A DNA stretch of 63,522 nucleotides, counting the filler, from Basidiobolus ranarum (lineage: Eukaryota): NCBI GenBank assembly GCA_040143965.1. It is 41 parts of 41 records of this genome, joined end to end, with 100 filler letters (N's around TTAATTAATTAA, not from the genome) between each part and the next. Parts side by side here need not be neighbours in the genome. Positions count along the whole stretch, not along the records: positions 34,207 to 35,657 come from JASJQH010005144.1; 40 more parts are not named here. The stretch is one strand, 5' to 3'. A program made the position numbers and the translations under genes. The notes under the pieces are model-generated. The model was not told the origin of the DNA and searched no databases. It saw only the letters and a list, made by a program, of their open reading frames with translations. Each line of letters opens with the position of its first letter. The first letter of the stretch is position 1. Positions 1,635-61,976 of the stretch are shown piece by piece.

Positions 1635-2555
1635 TTTGGTGGGACTTCCTATTCGGTAAGTGTTTGCTATATATTTACTAAGATATTAGTGGAACTACAC
1701 CATCTATTTTTACACGGTTGGAGTACTTGAATTGAGGAGAAGCTACACTGGAAAGCATGACTAACATCATATGAAACACTCACCTTTAGACTCCGACCTT
1801 TCCGGTATACGCTGGAAGAATGACAACTTCTATTTTTCTCAACGCAACAGATTGGAAGCCAGATGACATTCAGGCATTCAAAAATACTGACAAATCTAAG
1901 ATCATCGAGTCACTCAGTGATACTCTTCTTGATAACCGCACTTCGTGTGGCTTAATGTTGAGAGAGGTCATCCATTTGACAAAGAGCGAAAGGATAGCTT
2001 TAGTATCGATTGAGGAAAAGATGCTGAAAAGATGGCATACTAGCCGCATTGTGTTGATAGGGGATGCTTGTCACAAGTTCAATCCTGTAATGGCGGCAGG
2101 AGGAAATCAAGCTTTCTTGGATGCAGTGGTGTTGGCTAATTGCATACACGATATAATAGATGCTACTCTGGAGACGATCAAATTAGCTTTCACGACATAT
2201 CGTTCATGCCGGTATCGGAGCTCGATGACGATGTACATTTTCAGCCGCACGGTTGCCAAACTTTTGCTGTGCCAGGTAAGTTATTAGAAATTCATGGAAT
2301 AATAATCCACTTTCGAGTGACGCATATATTTTACCTATAGACTTGGCTACAAAGGGTAATAGGGATTATTCTACTCAGCATTCCTGTTTTTTTATTAGAA
2401 ATTCTTTTCAAGCATCTCTTCTGTAAAGATCTTCCTCAGGCATCATTCTTGCCACCGATTCCTTCTACGGGTACGTCAAACCTTATCCACAGAAACATTC
2501 CACACGATTGGCTTATGATAAGCCAGTTGTATGCAGTATTGAAGGCACACTTTAG
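1635..2555 (+). pseudogene. 5'-truncated, frameshifted FAD-dependent monooxygenase
   Basis: WHTSRIVLIGDACHKFNPVMAAGGNQAFLDAVVLAN (GD FAD motif); GT-AG introns 1656-1789 and 2276-2340; last exon needs frameshifts near 2362 and 2478 to read TWLQR...PQASFLPP...PYPQKHS. Confidence 0.8.
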
Positions 2556-6132: not shown

Positions 6133-6476
6133 NNNNNNNNNNNNNNNNNNNNNNNNNNNNNNNNNNNNNNNNNNNNTTAATTAATTAANNNNNNNNNNNN
6201 NNNNNNNNNNNNNNNNNNNNNNNNNNNNNNNNAATGGATGAATATGAAACTAGCATGCACAGTTTCGTGGCTATAAGAGTGGCTATAAACATAGAGTGGT
6301 AGTAAGTTGTATTCATCATTCATACTCACCTTCATTCATACTCGCTCTATACCGCAACCAGTTATCCGAACCATTAGAAATCAATACTTCCTAAATAGGT
6401 AAGAAGTCAACATCACACATTGACAACGTAGATATACAACTAACCTTATCTTGTACTAATTAGCATATCACACAAC

Positions 6477-7690
6477 ATGTCTCAATCAAGCAACAACATG
6501 AATTTACTACAAGCCCTCGTTAACACAGCCAAGAACTATCCAACGAGTGGCCTTTACTACATTAACAATTCCGACGATATTGCAAATCCTTCCTTCGACA
6601 GTTACCCCAGTCTTCTTAGACGGGCATATAATATTGGCCAAGAGCTACGTCCACTCACACAAAATACCTCTCGCCAAATAGTTGTACTGTATTTTGACAA
6701 TCATCAGGATACAATCGAGCACTTTTGGGGATCGTTAGCTGCTGGTTTTCTACCGTGTATTCTTGGGACATTGAAAGGTGATGATGAGAAAAAGGAAATG
6801 GAACTCTCACATCTCGATACTCTTTTCAACAAGCCCATCTTTCTCTGCCGCCAGAAAGATTGCCAAGAGCTCACTTCTTTGGCTCCAAATTTGAATGTTC
6901 AACCGGTTGACTGTTTTAAAGCCCGAGAGAGCCTTGATGCTAATACTGATATTACTGGACTCGAATCACTGAATCTCAGCAGTCACAACGCCGTAAACGA
7001 AGTAGCTATTCTGTTACTCACCTCCGGCTCTACTGGAAATTCAAAAGCTGTCGAACATACTAATGCAAATGTGCTTATTGCAGCCAAGTACAAGGTTGAC
7101 GATTATCAGCTTGAATCCACAGACACCATATTGAATTGGGTCGGATGCGACCATGTGGCTGGGCTAATTGAGAATCATATCACACCCCTTGTAGCAGGAG
7201 CAAATCAAGTTCAAGTAGCAGCGTCAGTGATCACCTTGGAGCCACTGACACTTTTAGACATTGCTGAAGTATTCGAAGTAGGCTATACTTTTGCTCCCAA
7301 CTTTTTGTTAGCCAACATTGAGAAAGATCTGAGAACCAAGCTTCAGGCGACTTCATCACAAGCACCACTCTACAACTTATCCAAGCTGAAGCGCATCAAC
7401 TCTGGAGGAGAGGCCAATTTGGTAGATTTAGGGAATCAACTCTTACTCACATTGAAAGAAGCAAAGTCCAAGTTTACTGGGATCATAGCGCCAGGCTTTG
7501 GAATGACGGAGACTTGCGCTGGTTGTATCTATAACAAACAGTTTCCATTCAGTGATACTGGGAAGGAATTTGGTACGTTAGGGCATCCTTCCAGCGAAGT
7601 ATGTTTGCGAATTGTCGATGATGATGATCAAATATTGCCAGCTGGCTCATGCGGGAATCTGCAAATATCGTGCCCTCAGCTATTCAAGGG
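6477..7690 (+). CDS. NRPS-like enzyme adenylation domain, alpha-keto-acid-dimerising (quinone/furanone synthetase) type; 3' truncated
   Basis: LTSGSTGNSKAV, LNWVGCDHVAGLIENH, TFAPNFLL, SGGEAN, PGFGMTETCAGCIY; intact intronless ORF; 5'UTR intron 6399-6463. Confidence 0.85.
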
Positions 7691-7790
7691 NNNNNNNNNN
7701 NNNNNNNNNNNNNNNNNNNNNNNNNNNNNNNNNNTTAATTAATTAANNNNNNNNNNNNNNNNNNNNNNNNNNNNNNNNNNNNNNNNNNNN

Positions 7791-14015: not shown

Positions 14016-14309
14016 GGCAGAGTGAAGCCAGACAACACCAACAGCATCACCAATCTTAAGATCCTTGACGTTGCTACCGAGGGCAACAACTCTACCAGCA
14101 CCTTCGTGACCACCAACCAAAGGAAGCTTGGTAGGAATAGGCCAGTCACCTTCAGCGGCATGGAGATCAGTGTGGCAAACACCGGTGTATTCAATCTTTA
14201 CCAGAACATCATCGGGACCTGGAGTAGGGACGGAAATGGTCTTAATCTCAACTGGTTTCTCGTGAGATTCGATGACAGCGGCTTTTTGAGTCTTAGGAAT
14301 TTGGCACAT
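14016..14309 (-). CDS. adh1: Zn-dependent alcohol dehydrogenase, N-terminal part
   Basis: IPKTQKAAV, GVCHTDLHA.GDWP, PLVGGHEGAG, GVVWLHSA: fungal ADH1-type. Confidence 0.95.
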
Positions 14310-15470
<1,161 letters not shown>

Positions 15471-15570: not shown

Positions 15571-17025
15571 GCCTTACCTAATGGAAGAAAAACTATTGGT
15601 AATAGATGGGTGCAGAAACTGAAACTTAACTCAGATGGATCCATCAACTGGTACAAAGCAAGATTAGTAGTAAAAGGCTATGCTCAGAAGCATGGCATTG
15701 ACTATGATGAAACATTTTCTCCTGTTGCTATGTTTACCTCTATCAGAGTAAACCTAGCCATTGCTACCCACCAAGGTATGCTGATTGAACAAATGGATGT
15801 CAAGACAGAATTTTGTAATGGAGAAATTAATGAAGATATACATATGGATCAACCAGAGGGATATATTCCAAAAGGAAAAGAACATCAAGTATTCAAATTA
15901 CAGAGAAGTCTATATGATCTGTAACAAGCTCCTTGTTCATGGAATACCAAAATCAATCTGATCTTCATGAAGCATCTTTTCCATTATAGCAAAGCTCATC
16001 ACTGCATATACTTCAAGACTATCAAAGCCACCACAGCTATAATTGCTCTCTATATTGATGATATCATAATAGTAAGTATTTGCTCAAATCTGATGAAACA
16101 AACTAAGACTTGGCTATCTACTGAGTTTAAAATGCCAGATCTTGGATCACTAGCATATTGTCTTGGAATGCAGAAACATCAAAACTGCACTATTGGAACA
16201 CTCTGTATTACACAGAAAAATATATTGGCGATGTTTTAAACAGATTCAGTATATCAGAATGTAGAACAGCTTCAAATCCACTATGTATGCTGAAACTCAC
16301 TAAGGATACAAAACCAACAACCTCTGAAGATATTGAAATCATGAAACATATTCCTTACAGTAGTGCAATTGGAAGTCTGATATATGCAACAACTGGTACC
16401 AGGCCTGATATTGCTACAGCAGTAAGTATACTAATCAAATATATGGAGAATCCTGCAATGGAACATTGGATAGTTATGAAACAGATAATGCACTATCTGA
16501 AAGGAAAAATACATCATGGAATTCAATTTAGTACGCAGTGCAACATGTCGCTTATTTTGGAAGGATATGCTGATGCAGGCTGGGCTATTGATACCAAAGA
16601 CCATAAGTCCAAAAATGGATACATGTTAAGCTAGCAGGTAGGCCAATAAGCTGTATTTGCAGGAAACAACAAACTGTTGCATTATCAACTGCAGAAGCAG
16701 AATCTATGGCAAGCTCTATGGCTGTTCAAGAAGCAATATGGCTAAGAAGTCTTCTCAAGGAACTAGGATATGAAAAATTAATCCTACCCCAATATATCAA
16801 GAAAATATAAGTTTTATTCAGATCTCCAAAAATCCTGAGCATCACTCATAAATGAAACAGATTGACATAAGACATCATTTAATACAAGAGAAAGTTCAAG
16901 ATAAGAAGTGAACTTTATTATTGTAATACTGAAAACATGCTTGCAGATATACTAACAAAACCACTGAAAACTTCAAGCTTTGAGAGTTAAGAGCAGCAAT
17001 AGGTATTAGTGAATATAAGCACAAT
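15571..17025 (+). mobile_element. Degenerate Copia reverse transcriptase-RNase H
   Basis: [55 protein letters not shown]; stops and frameshifts. Confidence 0.95.
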
Positions 17026-21788: not shown

Positions 21789-23130
21789 CCATATCAAGCT
21801 TGGTTTGGAGTTAAACCTGATGTAAAACATTTGAGGATCTTTGGATGCATTGCTTATGTCAAAATTATGACCAAAAATTGGTCTAAATTTGATCCAAAAA
21901 GTAAGAAATGCATATTTCTGGGTTAATGTACTAAAACTAAGGCCTACTGACTCAATGATACCAAAATTTCCAAGTTAATCAAGTCCAGGGATGTTTTGTT
22001 TAATCAAAATGAAAAACTTTCACCCAAAAAGACCTCAGTTGATGACAAAAATCAATTTTCTGCTGATCCAATCATTCAAATTGCTTCAAACCAAAACAAT
22101 GAAGAAAATAGCATTCCTGTGGACCCTTCAACCAAAATGTTGCCTACTGAAGTGCCCAATACAATGCCAGGAGTTGTAACACCTTTATCCCAAACCAGGA
22201 GATCAAATTGATTCAGAAATTGCCCTGATTACTATATCAATGAGGCCCAAATTTGGGCCTATGCCTTCACAGCTCAAATACAGGAACCCCAGACTGTAAA
22301 AGAGGCCCTAAATGGCCCTCAAACAAAATTTTGGAGATCTACAATGGCTGATGAGTACTAGGCTTTGATTGATAATCAAACTTGGATTTTAACCAACTTA
22401 CCTGATGATAGAAAATCAATTCACTGCCAATGGGTGTTTAAAGTCAAATACAACTCTGATGGAAATATAGAAAGGTACAAGGCTAGACTAGTAGCCAAAG
22501 GCTATTACCAAACACTAGGAATAGATTATACAGAAACTTTTGCTCCTGTAGCAAAGGTCAATTCAATTAGATTGATTTTAGCAATTTCAGCTAAATATCA
22601 GTTTGTTATACCTCAAATGGATGTTAAAACTGCCTTTTTGAATGGTGAGCCCAAAATTTGGGTGAATTAAGTCATACTTTTCAATCTAAATTAACAGATA
22701 AAACCAATCAGAAACTGATGTTAAATCAGTCCAGATACATCCTACACATCATAAATGCTTTAACATGGAGAATAGCAAGCCTATATCAATGCTAATGGAT
22801 CTCAATGTGAAGTTAATCAAAATTTCAGCCAATTTGGCCCAAAATGACTCAAATCAAATCCAGGAGCTCCCTAATCAATCCATGGGTAGTTCAATATATT
22901 CAATGCTTTTTGTCCAGACATTGCTATGGCAGTGGGAACCCTCAGCTAATATCTCAAAAAGCCAGGATCAGAGCACAAAACTTCAGTAAAACAATTATAT
23001 GAAATACTGTGGCACTTCTGATGCATAAATATTTGAAGGCTACAGTGATGCAGACTGGCAAAGATTTCTTGATGATAGAAGATCAACAACTGAGTACACT
23101 TCTCTCTTTGGTAATGGAGCCATAACTTGG
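21789..23130 (+). mobile_element. Internally deleted Copia integrase-tail/RT fragment
   Basis: HLRIFGCIAYV, EPQTVKEAL, RYKARLVAKGY, QMDVKTAFLNG. Confidence 0.92.
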
Positions 23131-31102: not shown

Positions 31103-31738
31103 ACCAGAAGCAATCTCATCAAATGGAATAGACTCAATCTTGGACTTGTCTAAGCTGTAGGTCCATTTAGCATCGACACTGGTGGAGAAGATACGATCGT
31201 GAGCATCTTGAAGGGTAGTGTATTCACAACGATGGAAGTTAGTGAAGTTTGAGCCAGTGGACTTGAGAACAAGAAGATCCTTAAGGCGAGACTCGATGGT
31301 GACATTCCCACCGCGAGAGACAAGCAACTCAACGCGTCTGGTGTCTTCACCATCGCGGAAGAAGGAGTGAGGGTGAAGCTGGCCATCAATGTTGACACGG
31401 GTCCAGCGGTGCTGGATGATCTTGATGTGAACATCATCAATATGAGAGTATCTGTTGATAAAGTGCTGACCAATCTCGTAACCAAAGCATTCAATGGTCT
31501 GGACATGGTTTGACTTCTTAGCAAGAACATAGATGGTGTTCTTGACAGTGTCGGTTGGGACAATGGAGCTGTTGTCAGCCTCGGTGTAGGAAGTCTCAAA
31601 TTTCCCGTCAAGAAGAACCTGGCAAGTGAGTTCGACAACATCGTGCCAGTCTTTAGTGTGACGAATAACCTTGGTAACACGGACCTTAGTCTTGCCATAG
31701 GCTTGTTTCTTTAAGTAGGCGCTACTGCTGTTAGTCAT
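31103..31738 (-). CDS. uox: Urate oxidase (uricase) paralog A, 3' truncated
   Basis: YGKTKVRV, SYTEADNSSIVPTDTVKNT, HPHSF, LLVLKSTGSNF, YTTLQDAHDRIFST. Confidence 0.96.
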
Positions 31739-32269
31739 TTTATGGCGGTGGTAGATAATACTTAATCTTGCTGTTAGTAATAAATGCTGGACAGCAATAT
31801 ACCTTTATATAGGGTATCAGCGAAGTATATGGTCACACTAGAATTTTTGATTGTAAATGATCAAAACTGGCCAGAAATCAATGAAGTCTCGGCCTCAACA
31901 CTTGGAGTAACTGTTTTCTCATAGCAATACCAAGTATTACGTAAATAGCGATTTTCATGAATTAGTATCAGCATAATGCCTATAGTACGGTAACAAGTTT
32001 TCTATTGTTTTAGAATATAAGTAAATCGTTAAATTTTGTAATCAGCACGTGTGGCCAGAGTATTGAAATTTCTATTTTGTATGATCCTCCCACATAAAAT
32101 CTCATCTCTTCATGGGTCCAGACCTTAATTTTATGTATTTCGAACTGGTATCAAACTTCCCAACATCATAATCGAAGAGATTATCAAAGTTAAGATGCAA
32201 GTAAGAGAGTATAAAAAACTAAATGGCATTATTCATTCAGTATTCCGTTCTAAAAGAATTAGTATTATT

Positions 32270-32554
32270 ATGTCATCCTCTGTTGAATTAAAGCGCCAGG
32301 CTTACGGTAAAGCTAAGGTTAGAGTCACTAAAGCTGTCCGCCACACCGCCGAGTGGAACGACATTGTCGAGCTCACTTGTCAAGTGCTCCTTGAGGGTGA
32401 CTTTGAGACGGCCTACACCGAGGCTGACAACAGTATGGTAGTCCCAACTGACACAGTCAAGAACACTTGCTATGTCATTGCCAAGAAGTCTAACCATGTT
32501 CAAACCATTGAACGTTATGGTTATGAACTCGGCAAACACTTTGTGGACAAATAC
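32270..32554 (+). CDS. uox: Urate oxidase paralog B, 3' truncated
   Basis: MSSSVELKRQAYGKAKVRV...YTEADNSMVVPTDTVKNT; true start at 32270 aligns with paralog A; TATAAAA at ~32210. Confidence 0.94.
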
Positions 32555-34206: not shown

Positions 34207-34740
34207 GCATGGAGGCTTCTCGTATGTTGGTGGCTTGACTGGAGGCTTGGGAGGTTTACATGACTTACTAGGAGGCTTCTCATATGTTGGTGGTTGTACG
34301 GGTGGTTTAGATGGCTTTGTGGGCTTGCAAGGCTTTCCTGGTTTGGTGGTAGTAGGAGGCTGGATCGGAGGCTTGTTATGCATAGTACTCACATCACCAT
34401 CTCTCTTTTGGTGGATTTTTCCTTGTTTCTTTCCATGACTACCGGTGGCGACGCATACCTTCACATCAGCCTTGATTCCCAGAATCTTGGCAGCAGCGCA
34501 GGCCTCCGCACATGTCATTGTGGAAGGAATCTTGACATGAGCAATCAGCTTGGTGAGATCAACATTAAGGCAAGCCTTAGCGTTGGCATGGATACCAAAG
34601 ACTGCAAGCCTTGCGATTACACCATCGCAGATGGAGTTTGAGTGTTTTACAGTAATGGGAGAGCCATTCAAGAAGGTTGGTTCTTTGGCCATTACGAGCG
34701 CAGCTGGTAACAATACTAGGGCACTTGCAAAGAACTTCAT
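34207..34740 (-). CDS. Secreted protein: one four-Cys domain, a KR site and Pro/Lys-rich PPTYEKPP repeats; 3' truncated
   Basis: Signal peptide; CDGVIARLAVFGIHANAKAC-x19-CAEACAAAKILGIKADVKVC; KPPVQPPTYEKPP repeats; TATA at ~34814-34820. Confidence 0.88.
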
Positions 34741-40433: not shown

Positions 40434-41859
40434 ATGATTCCCGCCAACAACCTGTTGTTACTTCTATCTAGTGCTCTTCTTGCCTCCAGTTTTGTTGTAG
40501 AGAGAGGATACGTTCCACCTACTGGAATCAGCTACTGTCAAGATCTGTTGTCGCACCTCAGAACTCGCTATGGCCTGAATATTGGTCCAGGTCTGTGCAG
40601 TAGCCGACCTGATAAGAGTGATGATGGGCTCGAGCTTCTAAATCCTGCTGATTTTACATGTGACGAACTTGCAGTCCGAGTCAGGGCTCTTGGTATCCAT
40701 GTTGATGCTAATGTCTGCCTCGGAAACATTGTCAATGAGTCTCACCGTAATGCTAAGAGGAGTGAGGATGATGATGAACGTCGGTGTAGAGACATCGTTG
40801 CCAGACTCAGGCTTCTAAAGGTCAAGGTAGATGCCAATGTATGTGTTGGTCTTCGAGGTGCTGGTGGTCTGTTGTCCAGAAATGAAATTAATCGAATGGG
40901 GTGTGAAGCACTTGTGGTCAAAGCTAGAATACTAAACATTATTGATGCTGATGTCAATATTTGTCTACAGAATGATAGAGAACCACGCAAACTTCAAGGA
41001 TCCAATGATGACAAATATAATGAGTGCCATGATATTGTCGCCCGCCTTCGTTTATTAGGGGTCGAAGTGGATGCAAATTTATGCCTTAGTACCAGAGGGA
41101 GCAAGGGTTGGTCAAAGAATCATGTCAACAGGTTGGAGTGCGATGACATTGTGGCTCATGCTAAAGTGCTTGGAATTCTCAAGGCTGATGCTGATGTGTG
41201 CCTACGCAATGGTCTGAATCCTGGTCACTCTCGACGTTCCAATGATGAAGATTACAATGAATGCGATGATATTGTTGCACGCCTTCGTTTGTTAGGCTTG
41301 AAAGTCAACGCCAACGTATGCCTTGGTATTAAGGGTAGAAATGGCTGGTCAAAAGAATATGTTGATGAATTAGAATGCGCTGACATTGTTGCCCATGCTG
41401 AAGTGCTTGGAATCATTAAAGCTGACGTCAATATCTGTCTGGGCAACATCTTGAACCTCGGCCACTCTCGAGGCCCTAATGACAATGAAGAGTACAACGA
41501 ATGCTCTGATATCGCTGCTCACCTTCGTTTGTTAGGCTTGAAGGTGGACGCAAATGTATGCCTTGGTATCAGAGGGAGCAAGGGTTGGTCAAAGGATCAC
41601 GTCGACAGGTTGAGGTGTGAGGATATTGTTGCCCACGCTAAGGTACTTGGGATTATCAAGGCTGATGTCAATGTGTGTCTTGGCAATATCCAGAACCTCG
41701 GTCACTCTCGAGGCTCTGATGGTGATGAATATAACGAATGCCCGGATATCGCTGCTCGACTTCGCATATTAGGTCTCAAACTAGATGCTGATGTTTGCAT
41801 TGGCGTCAAAAGTGCTGGTGGATGGACCAAAGATGATGTACGTAATAAAAGTTGCGAAG
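40434..41859 (+). CDS. Secreted tandem-repeat protein with at least 5.5 copies of a ~79-aa four-Cys unit; 3' truncated
   Basis: Signal peptide; alternating CxDIVARLRLLGLKVDANVC and CxDIVAHAKVLGIIKADVNIC modules; 475 uninterrupted codons. Confidence 0.93.
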
Positions 41860-41959: not shown

Positions 41960-43408
41960 TGCCATTGCAGCACTCCAAAACTTCATGTTGGGACTCTCCA
42001 AAGCCTCCTGTACTGATTTTGGCTCATCAGAAAAGGCTAAATTAGCACTAGGCTCCTTTTGGCTAGTAGGAGAGTAGTAATCAGGCTGATATTTCAACCA
42101 ATTGGATCTCCTAAGATGGGAAAATGGCACTATGACTTCTGGTACCAATTTAGCCAATGAAACCACCTCAGGCTTGGTTGAGGAGACTGCAGGTGAGAGA
42201 CTTTGAATGGTTTTCTTACTGATCAAGATCTGGTGAGCAAAAGTAGAATTTTCATTGATTTTTGGTTGTTTTTCTTGATCCTGGATTGTTTTGAAAGAAA
42301 ATTTTTCTTCTTTCCCAAATTTCATGTCCCTTGACTTGATTAGCCTCTTATTTACCATGTCATATAGCCTGTATGTTTTTGTACCATTCAATATCCCAAA
42401 AAAAGACATATCTGGCTTTTTTGGTATAATTTTGATCTCTTCTTGCCTGGAATCATTGCATATGTGGTACTTCCAAGAACTCTTAGATTAGCCACATCAG
42501 GTTAACTTCCAAACCAAGCTTGATAAGGTGCTATAGCCAATATAGATCTGGAAGGATATCTATTTGTAATATATACTGCAGTTGCAACCAATTCAGCCCA
42601 GAACTGTTTTGGTAAATCTTGCTCATGAAGCATTGATCTTGCCTTTTCCATTATGGATCTGTTTGTACATTCTGCTACTCCATTCTACTGTGGAGAATAT
42701 AGTACTGTAGTCTGCTGCTTTATCCCATGTGTTGAGCAGAAGTTAGAGAAGAGTTTTGAGTTATATTCCCCTACAATATCAGTACGGATAATCTTAATCT
42801 TTAGACCTGTTTCAGTCTCCACCTTTGCTTTGAACTTCTTGAAGGTATCAAATACTTCATCCTTACTAGCCAGAAAGTACACCCAAGTATACTTTGTCTT
42901 ATCATCAATAAAGGTCATAAAATACCTTTTTCTGCCTAAGCATTTTGTCTGCATTAGGCCACATGGATCTGCATGTATCAGGCCCAATTTGTGATTAATT
43001 TTGCTCATTCCAGAGCCCACAAATGGCTGTTTGTGTTGCCTACCATATAGGCAATGTTCCCATAGCTCCAGATCTGGTGGAATTACAAAATGTAGTCCAA
43101 AAACCATCTTGTTTTTGATTAAAATTCTCATATTTTCAACTCCTGGATGACCCAATCTTCTATGCCAGATTTTCCAGTCCATCTCTTCAGCTGTGGCAAT
43201 ATTAACTTGTTCATATATTGGCCTAATATAATGAAGCTTATACAAGTCCTTTTGCTTAGGCCCAGAAGCTACTTAATTCCCTTTTTGATCCCTGATTGTG
43301 CAGCCATTTTGATCAAAATTAAAGCTATATCCCTCAGATGTATCTTTATTCACTGATGACAAATTTTTTGCTATCACAGGCACATATAGCATGTTTTTCA
43401 GTGTCAAA
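41960..43408 (-). mobile_element. Degenerate Copia integrase region
   Basis: WHRRLGH, HADPCGLM, YFMTFIDD, IRTD..GEY, EPKSVQEAL. Confidence 0.95.
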
Positions 43409-58884: not shown

Positions 58885-61111
58885 NNNNNNNNNNNNNNNN
58901 NNNNNNNNNNNNNNNNNNNNNNNNNNNNTTAATTAATTAANNNNNNNNNNNNNNNNNNNNNNNNNNNNNNNNNNNNNNNNNNNNTCCTTACTGTGACAAG
59001 GACATTGAAGCCAGTGTATTAGACTTGTTCCATCAGACCAGGTCAGATCCTGCTGCTCAATCCAGCCTGCTAGTACACCATCTGGCACAATCTGTCAATT
59101 ATCATGGCTGGATCCTATAACACTTGATCGGACACTATAAGGACCAATATGGAACTATCCCACTACAATTGTACATGGTAATTTTTTTGGAGATATTGTG
59201 CCAGCCTGTACTAAGTTACCCAATTTAGTATTGCCTTATTAAGATTTTGGGTAACAGACAAAGCAAGTTCATCCCCTGGTTTGTAACTTACAAATTCCTG
59301 AATATGTAACAATAAGCCATTTATACTGCAACTTACCCAATCAAATGCATAAGCAAGACATTCTCATGTTTTAGGCCAATCAGTTGTCTCACACTAACAC
59401 AGTATCCTGATTTTCAATGGGGCCCAACCACCCCTGCATTACAAAACACCTGTAGTTCTGGCACACAGGTAACCAATCACAACACTCAATGATGGATCAA
59501 TCTGCAGTATGATAGTAATGATCAGGATCACTTGATTCATCATTTTTAGATCAGCAAATTATTCATTCAATCATGTCAGCTTCTAATTGGGTGAGAATGT
59601 GAACAGATTGAGCCATATCAAGCCAATACGGCTGCACAAGTTTTCTATTGACAGACATTTTGCATTGAATTGCAGTGAAATCACTAGTAAGAATAGGCTA
59701 TCCTTGATTTTTTTGATAATTGACAATTTCATGCTATCAGTGTTTCATAACAAGATAAGCAATTGTGATCCAACTAAATCAATTTTTGCTGTATATAACT
59801 GCAATATAAATTGATTTTGCATGATGTGCTAAACAGTAAAGATAGGATAATGTGAGTATTAACCAGAGTATTCAGCAGTTGCCTTGGTTTCAAGAGGTAC
59901 ATGCTGATTTGCTTCTGTTTTTTTTTGTTATATCCTTAATACTTCCATGGAAGGAACTTTGGTTGAACCTCTGCACTGAGTTGGTTGGTTTGATCCTGCT
60001 GAAGTTCCTCTACCTTGGCCAGCATGATTTGTGGCTTGAATTTGATGTGCTCTGGTATGCATAGGCTTGTTCAGTCTAGTTTGTGGTTTGTTTGCATCTA
60101 TAGTCTCTTCTTCTGATGTGGAGCCTTAACTTAATGGGTCAACCAAGGGTCACAATCAGGAACTGGACAAGGACTGGAAAGAATGACAAGAGGCTAGAAG
60201 GCAGGAGAGTACTTGGGTGTAGAACACAAGACAAGACAAGACAAGACTGGACAAGGAAGAGACTTTGGCAAGAATCTTTATTGATAACTGGCATTGATCA
60301 GACTGAGGTCTGATCAAGGAATACATGGTGCTTATATAGATATTGCAAGGTGAAACATAATATACTGAATAGGGAATATACTGTGGCAAGTTTGAGAGTT
60401 GGGGTATTAGGGACTACAAGGACCAATACANNNNNNNNNNNNNNNNNNNNNNNNNNNNNNNNNNNNNNNNNNNNTTAATTAATTAANNNNNNNNNNNNNN
60501 NNNNNNNNNNNNNNNNNNNNNNNNNNNNNNAAAGAAGTGAACTTTATTTATTGTAATACTGAAAACATGCTTGCAGATATACTAACAAAACCACTCAAAA
60601 CCTCAAGCTTTGAGAAGTTAAGAGCAGGAATAGGCATTAGTCAGTATAAGTGTAATGCTGAATAAGAATTAAGGGAAGGTGTTGGATAATTAATCTTTAT
60701 TTAACATCATTGTTAACTTCAGTTATGATACATACATCAGAAACAGAGAGCAATGTATCTATAGCCCCTATATTCTAAATAGAAGTATCTCTATAACTAT
60801 ATAACAAGTAGGTCTTATTACCCCCACTTATCTATTATATCTTATTACATCAACTCCTGAATATCACAAACAATTGATTGACTTTTCTACTATATAAGTC
60901 ACCATATACTCATAAGAATAAAGTAACTAAAAACACACTATCATAAGTTGCTTCTAATACTCAAAGTCTACCCCCATGATGTCAAGATCCTGCAACTATT
61001 TCCACCAAAATGTATATTTGCTTAAGTTCTGGTCAATAAATAGTTATCTCACATAGCTATTCACAACTCCACTTTTCTAGAGTTCCTCCAAACAGCCCAT
61101 ATTTTCCCAAT

Positions 61112-61976
61112 AATAATCAGGTCCAACATAGCTAAATCTCCTATGCCATGGTACAATAGTTTCTTGATTGGAATAATTTATATTTAAACACAAACCTCTT
61201 GGATTGTATGTAAGTTTGTATAAGTTCTGATCCTTTTCTTTCAAAGCTAAATAATTCTGATTTTGATCAGTGATGGTGCATCCTGACTTATCAAAATTGA
61301 TTTTTTGCCCTTCTGAGGTGGCCTTGCATACAGACATTAAATTCTTGGCACTATCTGGGACATGTAGTACATTCTTAATAGTATACACTTTCTCTTCAGA
61401 AGCTCCAGTTAAAGTTACTAGAATAGTTCCCTTTCCAATGGCATCCAATGTGTGGTCATCTCCTATGAAAACATTTCTAATTGGGATTTCTTCATAATCC
61501 ACAAACCAATGTTCTTCATATGTGAAATGTTGGGAAGCTCCAGAATCAATATACCACATCTGAGAATTTGTTGGCAGTCATAGATAGAGTGGATATGACC
61601 AAATGATCTTCTGTTGTAGCCATATTCCAGATTTGGTGTGCTTTTCTTCTTTAGCAATTATTTTAAAGCAATCTTTGCTTATATGGCCAATTCTTTTACA
61701 GTAATCACATAATGTGTTGCTTTTCTTCTTAAAGTGCTTTTGGCCTTTGGAAGAAGGTTTCTCACAGCCTATTAAAGTATTTTCTTCATTCTTTTAGTTG
61801 GATATCAATTTGCATAAATCTTTATCCAGAAGTCTTTGAATAAATGTTTAATAGTTGAATTTTCGGTTCTTGATTTTAGAGCTAATACTAGGCTCTGAAA
61901 CTTATGTGGTTGGCTATTCAGGACTGCAACTATGATATCTTGATCAGTGGTAAATTCTCCAATGCATTCTATTTCA
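61112..61976 (-). mobile_element. Copia gag zinc knuckle-protease fragment
   Basis: CDYCKRIGHISKDC, WYIDSGASQH, VLHVPDSAKNLMSV, WHRRFSY. Confidence 0.92.

Follow-up and report, generated by a model that had tools for sequence, protein, structure and literature searches.

A four-Cys domain in P0001, the truncated gene product of a Basidiobolus ranarum locus, places this protein in a family that is real and apparently undescribed and that, judging from the protein databases, is so far confined to the genus Basidiobolus. The window analysed here is a stretch of 63,522 nucleotides in which 41 contigs of 1,446-1,458 bp from the B. ranarum genome (GCA_040143965.1) follow one another with N spacers between them; it holds the P0001 gene and, on another contig, the gene of a second family member, P0002. 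Taken from its architecture only, P0001 is quite possibly, if not yet probably, a modular protein that is secreted into the extracellular matrix, be it cell wall, spore wall or adhesive layer, and stabilised there by disulfides. The features of the two genes are as follows.

34207..34740, minus strand: partial coding sequence of P0001, 178 aa, 5' complete from the ATG at 34740 and 3' cut at 34207
34687..34740, minus strand: signal-peptide-like N-terminus MKFFASALVLLPAALVMA, residues 1-18, called by hydropathy
34570..34629, minus strand: module A of the four-Cys domain, C38-x18-C57, CDGVIARLAVFGIHANAKAC
34513..34569, minus strand: 19-residue spacer between modules A and B, residues 58-76, with a predicted short central helix
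34453..34512, minus strand: module B of the four-Cys domain, C77-x18-C96, CAEACAAAKILGIKADVKVC, with an extra Cys at 81
34402..34407, minus strand: K112-R113 dibasic site, a candidate site for putative Kex2-type cleavage
34207..34374, minus strand: Pro/Lys-rich region with interspersed Cys, residues 123-178, probably a linker
40434..41859, plus strand: P0002, 475 aa, cut by the contig end, a signal-peptide-like start followed by a tandem domain array
40785-40970, 41025-41207, 41262-41444 and 41502-41684, plus strand: four complete A-B domain units of P0002, 109-124 bits each

The reading frame of P0001 reaches the N spacer without a stop codon, so the gene is 3'-truncated; a further partial protein of B. 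ranarum, P0003, is collinear with it at 92% identity. Its N-terminus attains a Kyte-Doolittle maximum of 2.75 over 10 residues, and the domain that follows spans 59 aa in the pattern C-x18-C-x19-C-x18-C. The fifth Cys, found in a CAEAC motif inside module B, is replaced by V, I or A in 9 of 11 aligned rows. Behind the domain, the KR pair recurs in one and the same column in 10 of 12 aligned subfamily rows, with acidic residues after it, and in P0001 it precedes the conserved stretch DGDVSTMHNKPP. The Pro-rich region then covers 56 aa with 22 Pro (39%), 12 Lys and 3 Cys, and as far as this 3'-truncated gene extends it contains 7 KPP, 9 PP and two PPTYEKPP on a 20-aa period. The latter belong to two KPPV[QK]PPTYEKPP units with a period of 60 nt (2 copies at 70% DNA identity); the period came from a separate repeat search, Tandem Repeats Finder having reported 0 repeats for the contig at 34207-35657.

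Checked residue by residue, the reading of the domain, the KR site and the repeats in the original prediction proved right, coordinates included. Its description of the Pro-rich part as an extensin-like tail was less apt: the count of the SPPP motif in the 56-aa Pro-rich region is 0, which makes "extensin-like" imprecise, and complete relatives continue past the Pro-rich part into a second Cys domain, so that in them this part is a linker and not a tail. By comparison with those sequences the "tail" of P0001 is very probably an inter-domain linker, and the missing 3' end of the gene probably encodes the second domain, expected to follow further Pro-rich repeats and to carry five Cys like its counterparts in P0004 and P0033.

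P0002 is identical (100% over 377 aa) to B. ranarum K7432_018151 (P0012). The P0001 gene is located on the contig at 34207-35657 and the P0002 gene on the contig at 40410-41859, that is, on different contigs of about 1,450 bp, as had been claimed. BLASTP of P0001 residues 38-99 against the P0002 repeat gave a best E-value of 1e-09 with 22/63 identities, alongside weaker alignments to the other successive repeats of P0002. An HMM built from the four A-B units of P0002 scored the P0001 domain at 29.8 bits, whereas shuffled P0001 controls reached at most 8.9 bits (1,000 shuffled freely) and 11.2 bits (1,000 with Cys fixed); this profile comparison had been set beforehand as the check on the proposed kinship, and the similarity clearly exceeds the shuffles. 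The modules of the two proteins had been said to agree in both order and spacing: the order does agree, but the exact spacing does not, module B of P0002 being one residue longer. The short regular expression originally given for module A likewise fails to fit both proteins literally, although the alignment fits both. A six-frame search of the window with a regular expression returned 11 overlapping matches, one in the P0001 gene and 10 in the P0002 gene, and six-frame HMM and regular-expression scans of the whole window located the four-Cys domain nowhere beyond these two genes.

Two other matches of P0002 were discarded. Residues 323-355 (41400-41498) score 27 bits to Pfam Urease_alpha against a curated cut-off of 23; the match covers just 33 of 121 profile positions and was treated as a false positive, one that automatic annotation could spread. 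Two bacterial loci matched with P0002 are chance hits that share the seed octapeptide only, without the module.

Across 13 diverse domain copies the four Cys are the sole invariant columns; module A has a nearly invariant Leu-Gly, and module B a nearly invariant A...L.I. P0001 scores 68.1 bits against the HMM of these 13 copies and fits the family spacing, C-x18/19-C-x14-26-C-x18/19-C, which describes 78 of the 79 full domain copies; the one exception carries a 7-residue insertion. When the A-halves (72) were aligned with the B-halves (71), hhalign gave a probability of 97.9% and E = 4.6e-13 over all 20 columns, and B-halves placed on the A-half HMM scored a mean of 15.6 bits compared with -0.1 for 1,420 shuffles. 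The two halves are thus homologous, the domain having arisen by duplication of a 20-residue module whose consensus is CxDIVARLRLLGIKVDANVC. The domain is rather hydrophobic, with a GRAVY of +0.83 in P0001 and a mean of +0.45 over 79 copies, and its consensus contains no conserved aromatic residues.

Departures from the four-Cys pattern were seen in several family members. The long Gly-rich linkers of P0017, P0023, P0027 and P0029 enclose a solitary mini-module with just two Cys (C-x16-C, type CAIGANV...LLGVDLC), which in P0027 supplies the 2 Cys beyond three domains of four. It is a hint that one module by itself might form a disulfide. In the N-terminal domain of P0024, which has no signal-peptide-like start, the first and third Cys are both lost and one is gained at the conserved Gly, while its close paralogue P0030 retains all four Cys. 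The loss could hint at C1-C3 pairing, or P0024 could merely be a decaying copy.

The 63-residue domain of P0001 was modelled with AlphaFold2 from a 32-row alignment, in which 26 non-query rows place the domain under the query. The model is all-helical (mean pLDDT 84.8, pTM 0.66), with predicted helices at positions 2-11, 18-21, 26-32, 41-50 and 58-62, so arranged that in each module a helix begins at the first Cys and is followed by a loop opening with Gly and by a short helix that bears the second Cys. Foldseek searches with this model returned 1 match in the PDB (E = 8.2) and 18 in BFVD (best E = 4.4), none of them at E ≤ 0.001 in either database, and the domain profile run against PDB sequences gave two chance matches only (E 0.55 and 0.69). 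The ESM Atlas yielded no usable match for P0004 or P0013. A full-length AlphaFold model of the relative P0004 reached a pLDDT of 45.6 and was set aside.

A search with P0001 retrieved 7 proteins, all from B. ranarum, among them P0003 and several complete sequences, for instance P0004 (308 aa); P0002 retrieved 5, four from B. ranarum and one from B. meristosporus. The profile of 13 diverse domain copies, run against the longer proteins, found 27, of which B. ranarum accounts for 20 and B. meristosporus CBS 931.73 for 7; every one of them is named "hypothetical protein" at NCBI. The named relatives number 30 in total, 23 of B. ranarum and 7 of B. meristosporus, and 79 full domain copies were counted in 33 proteins, which bears out the proposal of a modular, expanded family with further members beyond the pair in the window. 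When a five-copy domain profile was run with HMMER over 1.84 billion cluster representatives, only 17 proteins matched at E ≤ 0.001, and 15 of these are named as Basidiobolus.

Family members are therefore already public as hypothetical proteins, and the domain itself appears to be undescribed, as had been suspected. With the Pfam copy used here, which lacks the PF28059 model, no consistent family emerged for P0001, P0002, six relatives or the 32 alignment members: P0001 matched no family at E up to 1, and neither did P0004 or P0007, while at E up to 10 the 32 members produced a list of 23 families, none of them matched by more than 2 of the 32. The precomputed Pfam accession PF28059.1 is attached to one relative only, P0013, and no paper holding this accession was found; our literature searches also turned up no paper on a Basidiobolus four-Cys family.

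The family is not only expanded but tandemly duplicated, as seen from neighbouring K7432 locus tags: contigs of 5,956-5,960 bp carry K7432_013910, 013913, 013914 and 013915, and a single contig carries both K7432_009304 and 009305. At least eight members sit on contigs shorter than 2.3 kb (P0003, P0011, P0012, P0022, P0024, P0030, P0032 and P0034). The occurrence of members on short contigs or as neighbours suggests recent tandem duplication that broke the assembly.

Elsewhere in the window, fragments of copia-type retrotransposons were observed at 15571-16236 (+), 22362-22667 (+), 41960-43272 (-) and 61080-61577 (-), with Pfam matches to RVT_2, SH3_retrovirus, gag_pre-integrs, rve and Pol_BBD; their presence fits contigs that are short, repeat-broken assembly leftovers. 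One 1,452-bp contig holds two uricase-domain ORFs on opposite strands in a divergent arrangement, 31103-31804 (-) and 32129-32554 (+), which match Pfam Uricase at E = 6.3e-46 and 4e-15. An AMP-binding enzyme ORF at 6444-7691 (+) nearly fills its contig and runs off the end (E = 4.9e-28); it may represent part of either an acyl-CoA ligase or a non-ribosomal peptide synthetase. Further metabolic gene fragments are FAD_binding_3 at 1790-2284 (+), ADH_N at 14016-14354 (-) and TPP_enzyme_N at 14947-15282 (+).

Complete relatives of the P0001 type share one architecture: a signal peptide, the N-terminal domain, the conserved KR, a conserved V-S-I-M-H-N-K-P-P stretch, the Pro-rich region and a second domain with five Cys. 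The Pro-rich region varies in length and often includes CKTC, a Gly/Tyr/Asn tail sometimes stands at the end, and P0016 carries two N-terminal domains. Linker chemistry differs widely over the family, from Pro-rich linkers with CKTC motifs (P0004, P0033) to Gly/Asn/His-rich (P0027, with 31% Gly, P0029, P0017 and P0022), Ser/Gly/Lys-rich (P0030, P0024) and PKDPY-repeat linkers (P0021, P0031). Copy number varies too: P0002, P0010, P0013, P0014, P0015 and P0026 are arrays of 5-8 tandem domain copies with short linkers, and in the array proteins the Cys counts are multiples of four. A signal-peptide-like start, taken as a Kyte-Doolittle value of at least 2.2 within the first 30 residues, was found in 25 of 34 family proteins, those below 2.2 being mostly fragmentary gene models. 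By the same kind of hydropathy analysis, no family protein has a hydrophobic C-terminus of the length that a GPI signal requires, and covalent GPI anchoring is accordingly not expected; both the signal-peptide and the GPI calls come from a hydropathy heuristic rather than a dedicated predictor. A dibasic [KR]R is present in 10 of the 48 inter-domain linkers across the family and in none of those of three arrays (0/5 in P0013, 0/3 in P0014, 0/3 in P0015). With 38 of 48 linkers lacking such a site, the arrays are not regular Kex2 polyproteins.

It is the interchangeable linker chemistries, the variation in copy number and the odd Cys counts that lead us to a structural reading of P0001; the varied linkers, together with the lack of any consistently matched Pfam family, point to a beads-on-a-string design without an enzyme domain. 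For a matrix protein of this kind we infer secretion, disulfide formation, location and any cross-linking. The signal peptide would route P0001 into the secretory pathway, where the 60-aa domain, a duplicated helix-Gly-loop module with Cys at each end, may close into a compact, rather hydrophobic helical knot with two disulfides. The Pro/Lys/Thr-rich stretch would serve as an extended, protease-resistant and probably O-glycosylated spacer, which in complete relatives leads on to the second Cys domain. The folded four-Cys domains could then act as points of attachment or association, and the spacers, which contain Tyr, Lys and additional Cys (CxxC in relatives), as tethers open to cross-linking. 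P0007, P0020 and P0032 have 9 Cys, so that one unpaired Cys would be free for an intermolecular bond. Pro-rich and disulfide-rich proteins resist proteases, a property that would suit a fungus passing through animal guts. According to a study of zygomycete secretomes, Basidiobolus secretomes cluster apart from those of relatives, and a group of secreted tyrosinase-domain proteins marks Zoopagomycota (PMC9391592); for cross-linking through Tyr the latter offers a lead at best.

Small disulfide-rich secreted domains are just as characteristic of effectors, toxins and antimicrobial peptides, and the KR behind the N-terminal domain, near-invariant at 10 of 12 rows, fits better with a released peptide than with a tethered bead. 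A Kex2-type cut after K112-R113 would free a piece of about 95 residues with the four-Cys domain, proposed to work as a small, soluble Cys-rich protein where Basidiobolus lives, in guts or with insects, be it as an antimicrobial, an effector or a signal. The 10 linkers with [KR]R agree with such processing. Possibly relevant too is a survey of Kex2-processed repeat proteins (PMC7329392), which counts 43 of them in B. meristosporus CBS 931.73, more than in any other strain it covers, including one type seen in Basidiobolus only; its accession list yielded no link between these 43 proteins and the four-Cys family. Set against this are the 38 linkers without a dibasic site and the fact that wall proteins can also hold a single KR, and release of a peptide seems to us somewhat unlikely.

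The arrays of 5-8 domains and the versions with mucin-like linkers also resemble multi-domain carbohydrate-binding proteins, which raises the question of whether the domain binds a wall or matrix polysaccharide (chitin, chitosan, glucan) or else the peptidoglycan of bacteria. In that case an array of domains would cross-link in the manner of a multivalent lectin, much as peritrophin-type proteins do. Such binding would be compatible with the matrix-protein reading, refining rather than replacing it, but the domain matches no carbohydrate- or peptidoglycan-binding Pfam family even at E up to 10, its consensus is free of conserved aromatics, and its predicted fold is all-helical, whereas most carbohydrate-binding modules are beta-rich. 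We consider it improbable. Still further down we would place a hydrophobin analogue, in which the hydrophobic, disulfide-locked domain would assemble at air-water or spore surfaces, lower surface tension or coat aerial structures. The positive GRAVY of the domain and the secreted appearance of the proteins speak for it, as does the UniRef name "Hydrophobin" for P0007 and P0032, a name that looks automatic, since another member is labelled "Xylose isomerase-like TIM barrel". However, a CC doublet and the eight-Cys pattern each occur in 0 of 34 proteins, no Pfam hydrophobin match appears at E up to 10, and the predicted fold is helical while hydrophobins have a beta-barrel core, so that this analogy is very unlikely to hold.

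Basidiobolus, an unusual early-diverging fungus with a life cycle that passes through insects and through amphibian and reptile guts, occasionally infects people, and to our knowledge the proteins of its wall, spores or adhesive conidia are almost wholly uncharacterised. A genus-restricted, expanded and apparently secreted family built on an unnamed domain is thus a concrete candidate for wall, spore or adhesion biology in Basidiobolus, and a domain of about 60 residues is small enough to be expressed rapidly, to have its disulfides mapped and to have its structure solved. Secreted Cys-rich families specific to one lineage are a common sight among fungi, and we regard the four-Cys family as a well-defined lead rather than a surprise, solid but moderate in weight. 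A bolder version of the matrix-protein reading, which we think unlikely as it stands, is that Basidiobolus, by duplication of a 20-aa module, evolved its own all-helical two-disulfide block of about 60 aa, a block for which no relative in another organism and no PDB fold was found, and that it builds a specialised structure chiefly from this block, strung on tethers rich in Pro, Gly or Ser. Candidates for this structure are the protease-resistant wall of gut-passaged spores and the adhesive tip of insect-borne conidia. If true, the building block would be an independently invented functional counterpart of hydrophobins and of the hybrid proline-rich proteins of plants.

Several known systems resemble the family in design. 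Peritrophin-type and cornified-envelope-type proteins are animal matrix proteins in which small disulfide domains are set on Pro/Thr- or Pro/Lys/Cys-rich spacers; they offer an analogy of extracellular cross-bridging design, with no known relationship in sequence or fold. Kex2-processed repeat proteins, in which Basidiobolus is the richest genus of the survey (PMC7329392), resemble the family as secreted fungal repeats with dibasic sites between some units; the units of the four-Cys family are, in contrast, 60-aa folded Cys domains and not short peptides, and with one KR in the 178 aa of P0001 and [KR]R in 10 of 48 family linkers, assignment to the regular Kex2-processed repeat proteins was rejected. 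The hydrophobins share the small, secreted, hydrophobic and (here predicted) disulfide-bonded fungal domain. Their pattern is C-CC-C-C-CC-C, with eight Cys in two adjacent pairs and four single positions, and the family has neither the CC nor the eight-Cys pattern; among the 23 Pfam families that the 32 members brought up at E up to 10, neither Hydrophobin nor Hydrophobin_2 appears, and with the helical predicted fold membership was rejected here as well.

Extensins are defined by the Ser-Pro3-5 motif. The Pro-rich region of P0001 is similar to them in being secreted, as far as the signal-peptide-like start suggests, rich in Pro, and provided with Tyr and Lys, but its 56 aa contain neither Ser-Pro3-5 nor a YxY-type motif, and with 0 SPPP the protein was rejected as an extensin. 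The plant proline-rich proteins (PRPs), with their PPVYK and PPVEK pentapeptide-type repeats, and the hybrid proline-rich proteins (HyPRPs), with a C-terminal eight-Cys domain of the lipid-transfer-protein type, come closer in plan, combining a signal peptide, PPxxK-style Pro/Lys-rich repeats and a hydrophobic Cys domain. The original comparison with them reaches no further than a similar KPPV/PPxxK style of the repeats, whose motif, as far as the truncated gene of P0001 shows it, is not the same, and falls for the Cys domain, which is unrelated to the plant eight-Cys motif: the Basidiobolus domain has four Cys, no CC or CxC, and no Pfam lipid-transfer or 8-Cys match. The order of parts differs too, since in Basidiobolus a Cys domain is followed by the linker and then by another Cys domain. 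The likeness between P0001 and these plant wall proteins is one of design, not of descent.
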